A DNA stretch of 64,000 nucleotides. Origin: Escherichia coli. Lineage in GTDB: Bacteria > Pseudomonadota > Gammaproteobacteria > Enterobacterales > Enterobacteriaceae. A program made the translations under genes and the position numbers. Location: the NCBI RefSeq assembly GCF_050920415.1, contig NZ_CP169309.1; one strand, written 5' to 3'. The notes under the pieces were generated by a model. The model worked only from the letters and a program-made list of their open reading frames with translations, searched no databases and was not told the origin of the DNA. Below, one piece after another: positions 3,156-60,117 of the stretch; position 1 is the first letter of the stretch; every line of letters starts with the position of its first letter.

Positions 3156-4193
3156 ATGAACGATGAGATGAAAGGTAAAAGCGGCAAGGTCAAAGTGATG
3201 TATGTCCGCAGTGATGATGATTCTGATAAACGTACCCATAACCCGCGTACCGGGAAAGGGGGCGGGCGTCCAGGAAAATCTCGTGCCGACGGTGGCCGTC
3301 GCCCCGCCCGCGATGACAAACAAAGTCAGCCCCGTGACCGCAAGTGGGAAGAGTCTCCGTGGCGCACGGTTTCCCGCGCGCCGGGTGATGAGACGCCGGA
3401 AAAGGCCGATCACGGTGGCATCAGTGGTAAAAGTTTTATTGATCCGGAAGTGTTGCGTCGTCAGCGTGCGGAAGAAACCCGCGTCTACGGCGAAAACGCC
3501 TGTCAGGCACTGTTCCAGAGCCGCCCCGAAGCGATTGTTCGCGCCTGGTTTATTCAGAGCGTAACGCCACGTTTTAAAGAAGCATTGCGCTGGATGGCGG
3601 CAAACCGCAAAGCGTATCATGTGGTGGATGAAGCGGAACTGACCAAAGCGTCAGGCACGGAACATCACGGCGGCGTTTGCTTCCTGATCAAAAAGCGTAA
3701 CGGTACAACCGTGCAGCAGTGGGTAAGTCAGGCAGGTGCGCAGGATTGTGTACTGGCACTGGAAAACGAATCTAACCCGCATAACCTGGGTGGCATGATG
3801 CGCAGTTGCGCGCACTTCGGCGTGAAAGGCGTTGTGGTGCAGGATGCGGCGTTGCTGGAATCCGGTGCGGCTATCCGTACCGCAGAAGGCGGTGCAGAGC
3901 ATGTTCAGCCGATTACTGGCGACAACATTGTTAACGTGCTGGATGACTTCCGCCAGGCGGGTTACACCGTAGTGACCACCTCCAGCGAGCAGGGTAAACC
4001 GCTGTTCAAAACCAGTCTGCCAGAGAAAATGGTGCTAGTGCTGGGTCAGGAATATGAAGGGTTACCGGATGCCGCACGCGATCCGAACGATTTGCGCGTG
4101 AAGATTGACGGAACTGGCAATGTTGCCGGGCTGAATATCTCTGTTGCAACCGGCGTTTTGCTTGGCGAATGGTGGCGTCAGAACAAAGCCTGA
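3156..4193 (+). CDS. yfiF: SpoU/TrmH-family RNA 2'-O-methyltransferase YfiF with basic low-complexity N-terminal extension
   Basis: ORF 3081..4193; start at ATG 3156 ([11 protein letters not shown]) preceded by GGTGGAGA; C-terminal SpoU-like domain. Confidence 0.85.
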
Positions 4194-7303: not shown

Positions 7304-7401
7304 GCCGGATGCGGCGTGAACGCCTTATCCGGCCTACAAGATCGTGCAAATTCAATATATTGCATGAGCCATGTAGGCCTGATAAGCGTAGCGCATCAGG
7401 C
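7304..7401. repeat. BIME: inverted pair of REP elements, flanked by two copies of a ccgggcttaaacccgg hairpin (7253-7270 and 7426-7449)
   Basis: gccggatgcggcgtgaacgccttatccggcctac and inverted gtaggcctgataagcgtagcgcatcaggc; typical REP consensus. Confidence 0.85.
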
Positions 7402-8919: not shown

Positions 8920-9657
8920 ATGTCACAGTCTACATCCGTGCTTCGTCGTAATGGATTTACTTTTAAACAGTTTTTTGTTGCTCACGATCGCTGTGCGATG
9001 AAAGTGGGAACGGATGGCATTTTGCTGGGCGCATGGGCACCGGTGGCTGGGGTAAAACGTTGCCTTGATATCGGCGCGGGTAGCGGGTTGCTGGCATTAA
9101 TGCTGGCGCAGCGAACCGATGACAGCGTGATGATTGATGCCGTTGAACTGGAAGGTGAAGCTGCGACTCAGGCGCAGGAAAATATCAACCAGTCCCCTTG
9201 GGCAGAGCGGATTAATATCTATCCGGCGGATATTCAGCAGTGGATCACCCAGCAGACAGCACGCTTTGATTTAATCATCAGTAACCCGCCTTATTATCAG
9301 CAGGGCGTTGAGTGCGCTACGCCGCAGAGGGAACAGGCACGCTATACCACTACGCTTGATCATCAATCGTTGCTAACCTGCGCGGCGGAGTGCATTACTG
9401 AAGAGGGATTTTTTTGCGTGGTGTTGCCAGAGCAGATTGGTAATGGTTTTACTGAACTGGCATTAAGAATGGGCTGGCATTTACGTTTACGGACGGATGT
9501 GGCGGAAAACGAAACGCGACAGCCGCATCGGGTGCTGCTGGCATTCTCCCCACAGGCGGGAGAATGCTATAGCGATCGCTTAGTGATTCGTGGGCCAGAC
9601 CAGAGCTATTCCGAAGCGTACACTGCGCTGACCCAGGCTTTTTATTTGTTTATGTAA
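8920..9657 (+). CDS. yfiC: tRNA (adenine37-N6)-methyltransferase TrmN6 (YfiC)
   Basis: ORF 8800..9657; start at ATG 8920 ([13 protein letters not shown]) gives 245 aa; NPPY methyltransferase motif (IISNPPYY). Confidence 0.85.
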
Positions 9658-11264
9658 AGGTTGTCGGGGGAAAGGATCGATGGGCCAGAGTGAGTGAGCA
9701 ACTCCGGGTAATCCAGCGTGAAATGCAGCCCCCGGCTCTCCTTGCGCACCATCGCACAGCGAACAATCAACTCGGCAACCTGTACCAGATTACGCAGCTC
9801 CAGCAAATTATTTGATACGCGGAAATGGGCGTAATATTCGTCTATTTCCTGCTGAAGCATATTGATCCGCCGCAGGGCGCGTTCCAGACGTTTCGTTGTG
9901 CGCACAATGCCGACGTAATCCCACATAAACAGACGTAGCTCGTGCCAGTTATGTTGAATCACCACCAGTTCGTCAGGGTTCTCAACACGGCTTTCATCCC
10001 ACGGCGGTAACGTACTGACGTCGTGGGCATAAGGCATACGCCTGGTAATATCCTCCGCCGCCGACCAGCCGTAAACCAGACACTCCAGTAATGAATTTGA
10101 GGCCATGCGGTTAGCGCCGTGTAAGCCGGTATAACTCACTTCGCCAATGGCGTACAAACCTTCGACGTCCGTACGCCCATGATCATCAACCATTACACCA
10201 CCGCAGGTATAGTGTGCAGCAGGCACAATCGGCACAGGGCCTTTCGTGAGATCAATCCCCAGTCCCAATAACTTTTCATAAATCATCGGGAAATGCTGAC
10301 GAATAAAATCGGCAGGCTTATGGCTGATGTCGAGATACATACAATCCGCACCGAGGCGTTTCATTTCATGATCAATAGCGCGGGCGACAATATCGCGCGG
10401 GGCCAGTTCGCCGCGCTCATCGAAATCGGGCATAAAACGCGTGCCATCCGGGCGCTTGAGATAAGCACCTTCGCCGCGCAGTGCTTCCGTTAACAGGAAA
10501 TTTCGTGCCTGTGGGTGATAGAGCGCGGTAGGGTGAAACTGATTAAATTCGAGATTGGCGACCCGGCAGCCCGCGCGCCACGCCATAGCAATGCCATCGC
10601 CAGAAGAAATATCCGGATTGGTGGTGTACTGATAAACCTTCGACGCACCGCCGGTTGCCAGCACAACCGCTTTTGCGTGGCAGGTTTCAACCGTTTCTTT
10701 ATTTCGGTTCCATACCCACGCGCCTACAACTCGTCGCGTGCCCGGCAGGCCAATTTTGTCAGAGACAATCAGATCAACCGCGTTGCTGCGCTCCAGCACG
10801 CGAATATTCGGATGGTTCTGCGCCTTGCTCACTAGGGTGGTTTCTACTTCTTTACCGGTGGCGTCCGCAGCATGAAGAATTCGTCGGTGACTATGTCCAC
10901 CTTCACGGGTCAAATGGTAACTTTCTTCGCCATTCGATTGAACGTGGGTATCAAACAACACCCCCTGGTCGATTAACCATTGCACACAGGAACGCGCATT
11001 GCTGGCGACAAATTCAACTGCATGGCGATCACAAATACCAGCACCGGCTATCATTGTGTCTTCCACATGCGAATCAATGCTGTCAGTTTCATCAAACACG
11101 GCGGCAATTCCGCCCTGGGCATAAAATGTTGAACCTTCCGTGACTGGGCCTTTACTTAGAACGATGACATGATGCCGATCAGCCAGACGTAGCGCCAGTG
11201 AAAGCCCGGCAGCGCCGCTACCGATAATCAACACGTCACATGAATGTTCAGGGAGAGTATTCAT
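9642..11264 (-). CDS. nadB: L-aspartate oxidase
   Basis: 540-aa ORF with N-terminal FAD-binding GSGAAGLS motif; 3' end overlaps yfiC 3' end by 16 nt. Confidence 0.95.
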
Positions 11265-12930: not shown

Positions 12931-13886
12931 TGAAGCAACTTTGGTTTGCCATGTCATTAGTGACAGGTAGCCTGTTATTCTCTGCTAACGCCTCGGCCAC
13001 TCCCGCGTCCGGGGCGTTATTACAGCAGATGAACCTGGCCAGTCAGTCACTGAATTACGAGCTGTCATTCATCAGCATCAATAAACAGGGTGTTGAGTCT
13101 CTGCGTTATCGACATGCACGCCTCGATAACCGTCCTCTTGCACAATTGTTGCAAATGGATGGCCCGCGCCGGGAAGTGGTACAGCGCGGCAATGAAATCA
13201 GCTACTTTGAACCGGGCCTTGAACCGTTCACGCTTAATGGCGATTACATTGTTGATTCTCTGCCATCGCTCATCTATACCGATTTCAAACGCCTTTCTCC
13301 TTACTACGACTTTATCTCCGTGGGACGCACGCGTATTGCTGATCGTCTTTGCGAAGTCATTCGCGTGGTGGCCCGTGATGGCACACGCTACAGCTACATC
13401 GTGTGGATGGACACCGAATCGAAATTACCGATGCGGGTTGATCTCCTTGATCGCGATGGTGAAACGCTGGAACAATTTCGCGTGATTGCTTTTAACGTTA
13501 ATCAGGATATCAGCAGCAGTATGCAGACGCTGGCGAAAGCAAATCTGCCGCCGCTGCTTTCTGTTCCTGTAGGTGAAAAAGCTAAATTCAGCTGGACGCC
13601 AACCTGGTTGCCACAGGGGTTTAGTGAGGTTTCCAGCAGCCGACGTCCGTTACCGACGATGGACAACATGCCTATCGAATCACGTCTCTATTCCGACGGA
13701 TTATTCAGCTTCTCGGTAAACGTTAACCGCGCTACGCCATCGAGCACCGATCAGATGTTGCGCACCGGACGCAGAACCGTCAGTACAAGCGTACGTGATA
13801 ACGCCGAAATCACCATTGTCGGCGAACTGCCGCCGCAAACGGCGAAACGCATTGCCGAGAATATTAAGTTCGGGGCAGCGCAATGA
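12930..13886 (+). CDS. rseB: Sigma-E regulatory protein RseB (periplasmic)
   Basis: 318-aa ORF with signal peptide, start overlaps rseA stop (TAATG). Confidence 0.95.
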   Translation: MKQLWFAMSLVTGSLLFSANASATPASGALLQQMNLASQSLNYELSFISINKQGVESLRYRHARLDNRPLAQLLQMDGPRREVVQRGNEISYFEPGLEPFTLNGDYIVDSLPSLIYTDFKRLSPYYDFISVGRTRIADRLCEVIRVVARDGTRYSYIVWMDTESKLPMRVDLLDRDGETLEQFRVIAFNVNQDISSSMQTLAKANLPPLLSVPVGEKAKFSWTPTWLPQGFSEVSSSRRPLPTMDNMPIESRLYSDGLFSFSVNVNRATPSSTDQMLRTGRRTVSTSVRDNAEITIVGELPPQTAKRIAENIKFGAAQ

Positions 13887-14362
13887 TCAAAGAGTGGGCT
13901 ACGGTCGTCTCCTGGCAAAACGGGCAGGCGCTGGTCAGTTGTGATGTTAAAGCCTCATGCAGCAGCTGTGCTTCTCGTGTCGGTTGCGGTAGCCGCGTGC
14001 TGAATAAACTTGGCCCACAAACCACGCATACCATTGTCGTACCCTGTGATGAACCGTTAGTGCCGGGGCAAAAAGTGGAATTAGGAATCGCCGAGGGCAG
14101 CCTGCTTAGCTCCGCATTACTGGTTTATATGTCGCCGTTGGTGGGATTATTCCTCATCGCTTCGTTATTTCAGCTACTCTTTGCTTCAGATATTGCAGCA
14201 TTATGCGGTGCGATTCTCGGCGGCGTTGGTGGATTCCTGATTGCACGCGGCTACTCGCGAAAGTTTGCTGCCCGGGCGGAATGGCAACCGATCATCTTAA
14301 GCGTGGCATTGCCGCCAGGCCTTGTGCGATTTGAAACATCTTCGGAAGACGCGAGCCAGTGA
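13883..14362 (+). CDS. rseC: RseC (SoxR-reducing system component-like membrane protein)
   Basis: 159-aa ORF, overlaps rseB stop; cysteine-rich N-terminus plus TM segments. Confidence 0.9.
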   Translation: MIKEWATVVSWQNGQALVSCDVKASCSSCASRVGCGSRVLNKLGPQTTHTIVVPCDEPLVPGQKVELGIAEGSLLSSALLVYMSPLVGLFLIASLFQLLFASDIAALCGAILGGVGGFLIARGYSRKFAARAEWQPIILSVALPPGLVRFETSSEDASQ

Positions 14363-14559
14363 TTTCACTGGCTTTGTTGCATTTTGCATAACAAATGCGA
14401 GGACGTTTCCAGATACCACAATCCATACCGTATGAACATTTCCTCGCCTCAATGTTGTAGTGTAGAATGCGGCGTTTCTATTAATACAGACGTTAAGCTC
14501 AGAACAGCGACTTCTAAAAGCCTGGTTAACCGGGCATTAAGGCACAATAATCATACTTT

Positions 14560-16359
<1,800 letters not shown>

Positions 16360-17400: not shown

Positions 17401-17591
17401 TATGAGATAAATCTCCCGTGGCTAACGACATCCCCCGTCGTTGTGTATAGAATATTCCCCCGAAGTTTAAGGTTGGCACCTCCAGGTTGCCACGGCACAC
17501 GAAACAGCGTTGGTCCCCATATACCGGTAAACTGAAACTGCAGCGAAGCAGTTAGCAGAGCCATGTATATCAGGTCTGTTTCGTGTGCTGA

Positions 17592-19204
<1,613 letters not shown>

Positions 19205-19215
19205 GAGTTACTCCG

Positions 19216-21084: not shown

Positions 21085-21170
21085 TAAAAAGTAAAACCCC
21101 CGAACTGGTAAGGAACGGGGGTTTTACTTTACAACTTTAATTTTGTGCAGCACGCACCCTCAATGAGAGC
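21085..21170 (-). ncRNA. ohsC: Putative OhsC antisense sRNA (antitoxin of ShoB); boundaries approximate
   Basis: Known shoB-ohsC locus between acpS and yfhL; segment 21145-21164 is a 19/20 direct repeat of shoB 5'UTR segment 21393-21412, so a minus-strand transcript here would pair with the shoB leader; terminator at 21091-21130 fits a minus-strand 3' end. Confidence 0.45.
21091..21130. terminator. Bidirectional rho-independent terminator (acpS on + strand; likely also ohsC on - strand)
   Basis: aaaacccccg-N14-cgggggtttt hairpin flanked by A-run upstream and T-run downstream. Confidence 0.7.
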
Positions 21171-23781: not shown

Positions 23782-25882
<2,101 letters not shown>

Positions 25883-30361: not shown

Positions 30362-30548
30362 AGTGGCTCATTCACCGACTTATGTCAGCCCCTTCGGGAC
30401 GTGCTACATAAAATTCGAATGACGCACAACAAGGTGCCTGCCGTCCAACTTCTGATATCAGCTTAGCTATATCAACCCTCGGGCGAAACGTCGAGTTAGG
30501 CACCGCCTTATTCCATAACAAAGCCGGGTCATTCCCGGCTTTGTTGTA
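30362..30548 (+). ncRNA. glmY: GlmY small RNA (regulator of glmS via GlmZ/RapZ)
   Basis: Starts AGTGGCTCATTCACCGACTTATGTCAGCCCC as recalled for GlmY; ends at aagccgggtcattcccggctt hairpin plus U-rich tail; lies between purL and glrK. Confidence 0.8.
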
Positions 30549-53855: not shown

Positions 53856-54995
53856 ATGGTTTTGCAATCCACGCGCTGGTTGGCGCTCGGTTATTTCACA
53901 TACTTTTTTAGTTACGGCATTTTTCTACCTTTCTGGAGCGTCTGGCTTAAGGGGATTGGCTTAACGCCAGAAACTATCGGCCTGTTATTGGGGGCTGGTC
54001 TGGTTGCCCGTTTTCTCGGGAGTTTGATCATCGCGCCCCGCGTTAGCGATCCTTCCCGCCTGATTTCCGCCTTGCGCGTACTGGCACTGCTGACACTTCT
54101 CTTTGCTGTCGCCTTCTGGGCGGGGGCGCATGTAGCGTGGTTGATGGTGGTGATGATTGGCTTTAACCTCTTTTTCTCACCGCTGGTACCGTTGACCGAT
54201 GCACTGGCGAATACATGGCAAAAACAGTTCCCGCTTGATTACGGCAAAGTGCGACTGTGGGGCTCGGTGGCGTTTGTCATTGGCTCGGCGCTGACAGGCA
54301 AACTGGTCAGTATGTTGGATTATCGGGTGATCCTCGCGCTGTTGACGTTGGGCGTGGCGTCCATGCTGCTCGGATTTCTCATTCGTCCAACGATTCAGCC
54401 ACAAGGGGCTAGCCGTCAGCAGGAGAGCACGGGAGGGCCAGCCTGGCTGACACTGGTCCGCCAGAACTGGCGCTTTCTGGCCTGCGTTTGTTTATTACAG
54501 GGAGCGCATGCAGCCTATTACGGTTTTAGCGCTATTTACTGGCAGGCAGCTGGGTATTCTGCTTCAGCGGTGGGCTATTTGTGGTCGCTGGGCGTGGTGG
54601 CAGAAGTCATTATTTTTGCGCTGAGTAATAAACTTTTCCGCCGTTGTAGTGCACGCGATATGCTGCTGATCTCGGCGATTAGCGGTGTAATGCGCTGGGG
54701 AATTATGGGAGCAACGACGGCGTTGCCGTGGTTGATAGTGGTGCAAATTCTGCATTGCGGCACCTTCACGGTCTGCCACCTGGCGGCCATGCGTTATATT
54801 GCCGCCCGCCAGGGTAGCGAAGTCATCCGTTTGCAGGCGGTTTACTCTGCCGTTGCAATGGGCGGTAGTATCGCCATCATGACCGTCTTCGCCGGTTTCC
54901 TGTATCAATATCTGGGCCACGGCGTGTTCTGGGTGATGGCGCTGGTGGCGCTTCCGGCAATGTTCTTGCGCCCGAAAGTTGTTCCCTCATGCTGA
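53856..54995 (+). CDS. hcaT: MFS transporter (probable 3-phenylpropionate permease)
   Basis: 379-aa polytopic ORF. Confidence 0.9.
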   Translation: MVLQSTRWLALGYFTYFFSYGIFLPFWSVWLKGIGLTPETIGLLLGAGLVARFLGSLIIAPRVSDPSRLISALRVLALLTLLFAVAFWAGAHVAWLMVVMIGFNLFFSPLVPLTDALANTWQKQFPLDYGKVRLWGSVAFVIGSALTGKLVSMLDYRVILALLTLGVASMLLGFLIRPTIQPQGASRQQESTGGPAWLTLVRQNWRFLACVCLLQGAHAAYYGFSAIYWQAAGYSASAVGYLWSLGVVAEVIIFALSNKLFRRCSARDMLLISAISGVMRWGIMGATTALPWLIVVQILHCGTFTVCHLAAMRYIAARQGSEVIRLQAVYSAVAMGGSIAIMTVFAGFLYQYLGHGVFWVMALVALPAMFLRPKVVPSC

Positions 54996-56267
54996 TTCGA
55001 GCATTTTGCGGATCTGCTCCTGTTGGTGTGTTGTCAGCGTCAGATCTGTGTAGATCAGTGGTGGTGAAAAAAGCGGTAACGGCGTGGTGTAAGGCGCAAT
55101 AATCAGTGCCGCGCCGCGTGGAGCACCTCTCTGCAAAAATGCTTTTACCGACATATGCTTAATGTTGAGCGGCAGTAACGTCAGTTCACGTAACTGCTGC
55201 TCAATCTGCGCTTCACGCTCGCTATCATTCCCGGTCAGTAGAATAATCTGTTTTTCATGCAGGTCGTTTTCCTGCATTAGCCAGGCACCGAAAATCACAG
55301 CGACCAGACCGCTTTCCTCATCAGAAAGATGGACGCTGTATTCACTTTCAAATCCGGTCAGCGCCGCGCGGGTGGTGCGCACCAGGCGTGGGTACAGTCT
55401 GGAGAACTCTTCTGGCAGGGTGTTATCAATACCGATGGCAAACAAACTGCGATTTAACGCCTGGGCGAGGTGAGTATAAAGCTGATCGCATAACCCCTGT
55501 TCATCATAAAAACGAACATTTCCCAGCTCACGAAAATGGTTTACCAGACGTTTGATAGACTGACGCAATTGTCTGTCCCGCTGATGCGCATCCCGAATTG
55601 GATCGGGAACTCGCAACATGGAAAAAAGTAATGCCATAAATAGTGGCTCATCAGGCGGTACAGGCTGAAGCGCCCGACGCTGCCAGTGGCGTCCAATTTC
55701 CTGCGCTACCTGAAATTCCAGGCAGGATTCTGCCCAGCGACGTTGGAGCGGATTAAACTGAGGCGTAATGCCAGCGTGGTGTTGCAGCAAGCAATATTGC
55801 AGATACAGACACAGGAAATGAATATCGCGCGTTTCAAAGCGTTTTTGTAGCCGTCGAGAGCAGAGATTCACTAACGCTTGTAGATTGGTATCGTCGTAAA
55901 AGTTACGCGAAATTCCGCGCCGCTTTAGTTCACTCTTCAGAGCAGGTGTGAATTGGCTGGTAATAAATGACGGACACAGACGGAAACCACGTCGTAGCCA
56001 ATGAAATAAACACAAACGTTGGTTAAGCACTGTGCCTTCAACCCGATAGCTACCGTCATAACCAGTAGTCAGTGTGAGTTGATGATAGCGCAGGATCTCC
56101 CGTCCTGTTTCGCTGATATCAAGACTGGCAATATCATCATCCACACCATTAAGCTTGCTGAAGGTTGCCGTGGTGGCGGTCAACCCCGGCTGAAAGAGTG
56201 TCAGCAAGATCTGGCAGCGGCGCTGGGGAGCCGAAAGGACAGATGGTGAAGCAAGCGTAGGCATCAT
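54987..56267 (-). CDS. csiE: Stationary-phase inducible protein CsiE
   Basis: ORF 54987..56288; start at ATG 56267 (MMPTLASPSVLS) gives 426 aa; 3' end overlaps hcaT 3' end by 9 nt. Confidence 0.85.
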   Translation of the reverse strand: MMPTLASPSVLSAPQRRCQILLTLFQPGLTATTATFSKLNGVDDDIASLDISETGREILRYHQLTLTTGYDGSYRVEGTVLNQRLCLFHWLRRGFRLCPSFITSQFTPALKSELKRRGISRNFYDDTNLQALVNLCSRRLQKRFETRDIHFLCLYLQYCLLQHHAGITPQFNPLQRRWAESCLEFQVAQEIGRHWQRRALQPVPPDEPLFMALLFSMLRVPDPIRDAHQRDRQLRQSIKRLVNHFRELGNVRFYDEQGLCDQLYTHLAQALNRSLFAIGIDNTLPEEFSRLYPRLVRTTRAALTGFESEYSVHLSDEESGLVAVIFGAWLMQENDLHEKQIILLTGNDSEREAQIEQQLRELTLLPLNIKHMSVKAFLQRGAPRGAALIIAPYTTPLPLFSPPLIYTDLTLTTHQQEQIRKMLESA

Positions 56268-60002: not shown

Positions 60003-60117
60003 AAGATAACAAGATATTAGAATCAGGCCGGGGCGTCTCGCGCTCCGTAAACACGGTCGTACATCCAGCCGGTAGCCTGGTTCCTTGCATTGAGTGATGT
60101 ACGGAGTTTATAGAGCA

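Follow-up and report, generated by a model that had tools for sequence, protein, structure and literature searches.

Convergent genes that share their last bases have been catalogued in E. coli, where 75 convergent overlapping pairs were counted (Huvet & Stumpf 2014, PMC4161906). At the transcript level, ExcludonFinder listed 165 convergent excludons in E. coli MG1655, the basis being that transcription overlaps in 50% or more of 58 RNA-seq sets, and nadB-yfiC, csiE-hcaT and mltF-tadA are among them (Sanmartin et al., NAR 2025, PMC12288877, Table 1). A further related system is that of the bidirectional terminators of Ju et al. 2019 which, as cited through bioRxiv 10.1101/2022.10.23.513370, lie between convergent genes, are driven by collision of RNA polymerases and have ynaJ-uspE as their model pair.

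The same three gene pairs are found in the stretch of 64,000 nucleotides analysed here, referred to below as the window. Their overlaps are real, already known and ordinary, as both the K-12 reference annotation and the published catalogue of overlapping transcripts contain them. We consider it probable that they are ordinary and ancient tail-to-tail overlaps, either frozen by the TrmN protein or sliding, in which the transcripts end inside the partner gene mainly in a Rho-dependent manner and mutual interference is a by-product. The small addition made by this analysis concerns how the codons of TrmN hold the overlap at 16 nt throughout the Enterobacteriaceae.

The overlapping genes and their annotation

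The genes and the shared bases at the three junctions are the following.

8920..9657, plus strand: trmN (yfiC) coding sequence, tRNA1(Val) m6A37 methyltransferase, 245 aa, ending in FYLFM and the stop (ORF list, RefSeq annotation of a near-identical strain)
9642..11264, minus strand: nadB coding sequence, L-aspartate oxidase, 540 aa, ending in LYINK and the stop (ORF list, annotation)
9642..9657, both strands: tail-to-tail overlap of trmN and nadB, 16 nt (sequence, identical in K-12)
53856..54995, plus strand: hcaT coding sequence, 3-phenylpropionate MFS transporter, 379 aa (ORF list, annotation, NCBIfam NF008346)
54987..56267, minus strand: csiE coding sequence, stationary-phase-inducible protein with a PRD domain, 426 aa from the annotated start (ORF list, annotation)
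54987..54995, both strands: tail-to-tail overlap of hcaT and csiE, TCATGCTGA, 9 nt (sequence)
23827..24330, plus strand: tadA coding sequence, tRNA adenosine-34 deaminase (ORF list, sequence, NCBIfam NF008113)
24327..25882, minus strand: mltF, present as two ORFs through a frameshift near 25319 (ORF list, sequence)

The overlaps of yfiC with nadB (16 nt, 9642-9657) and of hcaT with csiE (9 nt, 54987-54995) had been pointed out in an earlier note on this DNA, and both are base-exact in the ORF list and in the raw sequence. The 3' frame of trmN reads ...GCT TTT TAT TTG TTT ATG TAA with its last base at 9657, while that of nadB, on the minus strand, reads ...CTT TAC ATA AAC AAA TAA with the stop running from 9644 to 9642. 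The nadB stop TAA is thus the reverse complement of a TTA taken from the Phe-Tyr codons of TrmN (T from the first codon and TA from the second), and the trmN stop falls inside the Leu-Tyr codons of NadB. At the other junction hcaT ends in TCA TGC TGA (last base 54995) and csiE, on the minus strand, in GAA TCA GCA TGA (stop 54989 to 54987). These two genes lie in one codon register, in which each TGA stop is the reverse complement of a Ser codon, TCA, of the partner.

A further convergent overlap, absent from the earlier note, joins tadA to mltF through 4 nt (TTAA, 24327-24330). The two ORFs of mltF encode 330 aa and 187 aa, and the locus is 1 nt short of the intact 1557-nt mltF of strain 2013C-4282; the break near 25319 marks a frameshift pseudogene or else stems from an error of sequencing. 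Of the roughly 10 convergent pairs that the window contains, three therefore overlap, where about one would be expected per 64 kb. As the 75 pairs known in E. coli amount to about one per 64 kb, three in the window is no significant excess.

The K-12 MG1655 annotation contains all three overlaps, with nadB at 2710420..2712042 and yfiC at 2712027..2712764 (16 nt), csiE at 2665435..2666715 and hcaT at 2666707..2667846 (9 nt), and tadA at 2697354..2697857 and mltF at 2695801..2697357 (the same 4 nt). The RefSeq annotation of strain 2013C-4282 also shows the same trmN/nadB and hcaT/csiE overlaps. TrmN, NadB, HcaT and CsiE match NCBIfam equivalog models essentially end to end; TrmN covers profile positions 1-244 of 244 of NF047853, CsiE covers positions 1-425 of 426 of NF008597, and NadB matches NF006567. 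The core of TIGR00551, the universal nadB model, stops at residue 520 of 540, the last 20 aa or so being a tail. Both frames of the overlapping pairs are thus real full-length genes with orthologues across the Enterobacteriaceae, and the 16-, 9- and 4-nt overlaps all consist of stop-proximal nucleotides shared by genes on opposite strands. Moreover, the overlaps are retained in orthologous pairs, and are for this reason neither strain-specific mutations nor sequencing errors.

One could still suppose that the C-terminus of one partner is misannotated or non-functional. The NadB tail and the final four HcaT residues are indeed poorly conserved, and in one Escherichia species (L011) a 1-nt deletion shifts the frame of the NadB tail while leaving the gene undestroyed. 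Against this, the 3' end of a coding sequence is its first in-frame stop whichever start is chosen, so that misannotated starts cannot produce such overlaps; homology verifies the frames up to the C-termini, and the FYLFM end of TrmN and the ...LE[SA] end of CsiE are conserved. The reading of the overlaps as C-terminal artefacts is effectively refuted. A shorter annotated C-terminus, which the earlier note had named as what would speak against the overlaps, has no application here since the stop codons are unambiguous and the C-termini conserved.

Compared with 5,426 complete E. coli genomes, the junction regions show 91-94% identity to almost every one, and a few strains that carry the name E. 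coli match them at 100%; over its full length the window is 98.6-98.9% identical to strain 2013C-4282. The closest TrmN among species representatives is that of Escherichia sp. MOD1-EC7003 (95%). The window, filed in RefSeq under E. coli, appears to come from a divergent or cryptic lineage of Escherichia. In the closest complete genome, NZ_CP027579.1, the era/recO spacer (window about 19204-19215) has about 121 extra bases, the identity outside this spacer being 98.6-98.9%.

Six elements of the window were matched at the Rfam gathering threshold, none of them near the junctions.

7338-7380, plus strand: ES036 sRNA (Rfam)
13847-14678, minus strand: AsrC, antisense RNA of rseC (Rfam)
17462-17676, plus strand: rncO (Rfam)
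21088-21164, minus strand: ohsC antitoxin RNA (Rfam)
30362-30509, plus strand: GlmY (Rfam)
60007-60116, plus strand: iscRS stability element (Rfam)

Evolution of a frozen and of a sliding junction

The trmN/nadB junction was surveyed with one genome per species in 80 Enterobacteriaceae loci, 79 of which have nadB adjacent. The 16-nt overlap is found in 75 of these 79, the exceptions being of 8, 8 and 12 nt; the 1-nt deletion in the NadB tail accounts for at least one of these (L011). TrmN ends in FYLFM and the stop in all loci but one, and NadB ends in [HY][IM][NK][RK] and the stop. Read on the other strand and in the frame of nadB, the Phe-Tyr codons of TrmN (TTY TAY) always give TAA or TAG. 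Further upstream in NadB, the Met codon and stop of TrmN force the residue at position -4, which is Tyr where the trmN stop is TAA or TAG and His where it is TGA, and the synonymous choices made for the Phe and Leu codons of TrmN determine whether NadB has Ile or Met, Asn or Lys, and Arg or Lys. The last four residues of NadB are therefore by-products of TrmN codons. Column entropies point the same way, with codon positions 1 and 2 of TrmN fixed and the preceding 15 or so codons of NadB variable at all three positions. With the TrmN C-terminus fixed and the NadB tail variable the constraint is one-sided, and the free tail of NadB runs on to the stop that TrmN forces.

On these alignments, the conservation of the 16-nt overlap is fully explained by the constraint on the TrmN protein. 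An earlier stop in the NadB tail was seen in 0 of 79 species, which are phylogenetically non-independent; such a count could hint that selection acts on how long the NadB tail is, or else on the overlap as such. For one-sided constraint in an overlap across a whole bacterial family, trmN/nadB provides a clean case.

The TrmN homologue search covered relatives of at least 71% identity, and a search of representatives together with four contigs (L096-L099) reached further. The FYL motif is kept in TrmN homologues at 45-54% identity. One relative in this range (L097) has unchanged synteny, ung-grcA-srmB-trmN followed by the convergent nadB-rpoE-rseA, and in it trmN and nadB are separated by a spacer of 70 nt (3757-3826) with a 9-bp GC hairpin, AGGGCGCA-N11-TGCGCCCT. 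In the other distant TrmN relatives examined nadB is displaced or absent. The presence of a spacer in a distant relative with the same gene order indicates that the overlap is a derived state, fixed within the Enterobacteriaceae, and the spacer hairpin may represent an ancestral terminator element between the two genes that was lost in this family.

For csiE/hcaT we compared 10 genomes in all, including eight contigs from other genera analysed with tblastn. The overlap is of 9 nt in Escherichia, including K-12 and E. albertii, of 6 nt in Citrobacter koseri, C. freundii and Salmonella, and of 4 nt in Kosakonia, Cronobacter and a Klebsiella-like genome; Lelliottia has a gap of 3 nt. The two genes hence abut in 10/10 genomes and overlap in 9/10, and the abutment holds even where the rest of the hca operon is missing. 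Both proteins have conserved ends, CsiE ...IRxxLE[SA] and HcaT ...LRPKV, that are followed by short variable tails, and it is because of these tails that the junction slides between genera.

Transcript ends and termination

The earlier note had deduced from the stop-to-stop arrangement that the 3' UTRs are antisense, with transcriptional read-through or interference, and that there is no room for terminators. Since neither junction has intergenic space, each mRNA is antisense to its partner beyond its own stop. In K-12 this antisense extension is borne out by the ExcludonFinder listing and by a csiE transcript end that lies within hcaT, mapped by Term-seq (Adams et al., eLife 2021, PMC7815308). 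The listing adds little, given that for overlapping coding sequences a call of overlapping transcription is near-automatic once both genes are expressed. The Term-seq end is at K-12 position 2666762 (+), 47 nt beyond the csiE stop; its two classes are 'primary', with respect to csiE, and 'antisense', with respect to hcaT (sheet LB OD 2.0 of supplementary file 1; PMC7815308). A gap-free alignment places it at 54940 of the window, which gives one more feature.

54940..54986, minus strand: inferred csiE 3' UTR, 47 nt, all of it inside hcaT and antisense to its coding sequence (position carried over from the K-12 Term-seq end through a gap-free alignment)

The RNA of csiE would then end in ...GCCGGAAGCGCCACCAGCG. 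In the tables of Term-seq 3' ends and Rho regions that we searched (Adams et al., PMC7815308), bicyclomycin also defines a Rho region at 2697064 (-), which is antisense to mltF and lies some 290 nt past the tadA stop. These tables give no Term-seq 3' end or Rho region for nadB or yfiC, and no bicyclomycin-defined Rho region for csiE or hcaT. As for the supposed lack of room for terminators, intergenic ones are excluded, but termination signals can sit in the coding sequence of the partner, as the Rho region 3' of tadA indicates.

We searched both junctions with consensus scans for intrinsic terminators and found none beyond the expectation from shuffled sequences and none just past a stop. A conserved GC-rich stem-loop followed by a U-tract (or, for a bidirectional element, flanked also by an A-tract) was not found just past the stops at the junctions, no Rfam family was matched at any junction, and at the mapped end of the csiE transcript there is no U-tract, the z-score for folding against shuffles being -0.36. 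Stretches richer in C than in G, ranked at or above the 90th percentile for the window, lie 80-360 nt past each of the six stops. Such an enrichment is typical of antisense-of-coding RNA in general and is for this reason weak evidence for Rho.

Two structured segments were considered as terminators and rejected. The plus-strand RNA 3' of the hcaT stop (54980-55200), which is antisense to the 3' region of csiE, folds better than its shuffles (z = -3.9); its fold includes a long-range pairing of GAGCAUUUUGCGGA with UCUGCAAAAAUGCUUUU within the csiE coding sequence and has no resemblance to a terminator. The other segment is a perfect 10-bp inverted repeat, GCATTCTCCC-N7-GGGAGAATGC, in the trmN coding sequence (9541-9567), at a distance of 75-100 nt past the nadB stop. 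K-12 has conserved it, and all 10 pairs are kept in 12 of 82 sequences (the 80 loci, the window and K-12). As an embedded terminator or as a stem protecting a 3' end it was discarded, having no U-tract, decaying outside Escherichia and showing no compensatory changes.

These results bear on the possibility that intrinsic terminators embedded in the coding sequence of the partner give short, defined 3' UTRs with minimal read-through. The perfect hairpin present in Escherichia would fit with it, as would a weak stem followed by a T-run just past the mltF stop and the TransTermHP-predicted overlapping terminators of 146 of the 165 convergent excludons, a figure that holds for the whole set and not per pair (PMC12288877). 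The defects of that hairpin, the fact that terminator-like sites are no commoner than in shuffled sequences, with none just past a stop, and a csiE 3' end with no U-tract and no excess structure all count against it, and we regard such embedded terminators as improbable.

The course of events that we favour, of ordinary overlaps with mainly Rho-dependent ends, would be the following. The spacer between two convergent genes would have been lost, one frame running on to the first stop available inside the partner, and with no intergenic DNA left each transcript would continue as antisense RNA into the partner and stop inside it, no canonical intrinsic terminator being involved. Most probably Rho would act on the RNA that is left untranslated once the ribosomes have been released; RNA polymerases meeting head-on might assist, and 3' trimming would come afterwards. 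A role for such collisions at convergent pairs has been put forward (bioRxiv 10.1101/2022.10.23.513370), and they may contribute here. Rho or polymerase collision inside the partner gene is the likely termination mechanism at these junctions; for nadB/yfiC, termination is something that we only infer. Mutual interference between the partners would be a minor by-product and not a selected function.

Possible function and comparison with known systems

A different view of the three pairs is that they are functional convergent excludons, in which overlapping transcription has been selected for mutual exclusivity through polymerase collision and cleavage of RNA duplexes by RNase III; the examples would be csiE, expressed in stationary phase, against hcaT, and NadR-regulated nadB against trmN. 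All three pairs do belong to the published E. coli excludome, in which synteny is higher for excludon pairs than for other adjacent pairs (PMC12288877), and abutment or overlap is conserved across the Enterobacteriaceae. However, membership of the excludome follows near-automatically for overlapping coding sequences, the TrmN protein constraint fully accounts for the conservation of the 16 nt, the length of the csiE/hcaT overlap varies between genera, and the relative with the 70-nt spacer keeps the same gene order. Nothing specific supports a selected excludon function, and we hold it to be unlikely.

We give still less credit to the idea that the family-wide zero spacing at trmN/nadB and csiE/hcaT is itself selected, with convergent transcription coupling the partners. 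If it were true, strong induction of nadB under NAD limitation would lower the expression of trmN, and strong induction of csiE in stationary phase that of hcaT, the coupling being exerted via polymerase collision and decay of duplex RNA. Working excludons would in that case tie tRNA modification to the synthesis of NAD, and the uptake of phenylpropionate to signalling in stationary phase.

With the reading of ordinary overlaps, which we prefer, there remains a practical meaning, namely that a deletion or tag made in one gene of a pair can harm its neighbour. For example, the primer for the Keio deletion of csiE takes out the 3' end of hcaT (PMC9431181).

Compared with the bidirectional terminators of Ju et al., as these are cited through the preprint named above, the junctions of the window are alike in having convergent genes, transcripts that overlap at their 3' ends and ends unlike canonical intrinsic terminators. 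The elements of Ju et al. are placed between genes and depend on a stem-loop formed by the RNA where the transcripts overlap, whereas the junctions of the window lack intergenic DNA and no conserved stem-loop was found at them. The convergent excludons of MG1655 (PMC12288877) are closer, as the three pairs are named among them and share with them a short intergenic distance, negative in this case, and a 3' overlap of the transcripts; the differences are that the window comes from a divergent Escherichia lineage, not from K-12, and that the outcome which defines an excludon, reciprocal expression of the partners with processing by RNase III, is at most putative for these pairs. The nearest likeness is to the 75 convergent overlapping pairs of E. 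coli (PMC4161906), which are also opposite-strand genes with shared 3' bases and with stops inside the last codons of the partner. The short overlaps of 4, 9 and 16 nt, conserved among relatives, resemble them as well and none is different in kind, the one-sided fixation of the 16 nt of trmN/nadB by the FYLFM end of TrmN being only an added detail.
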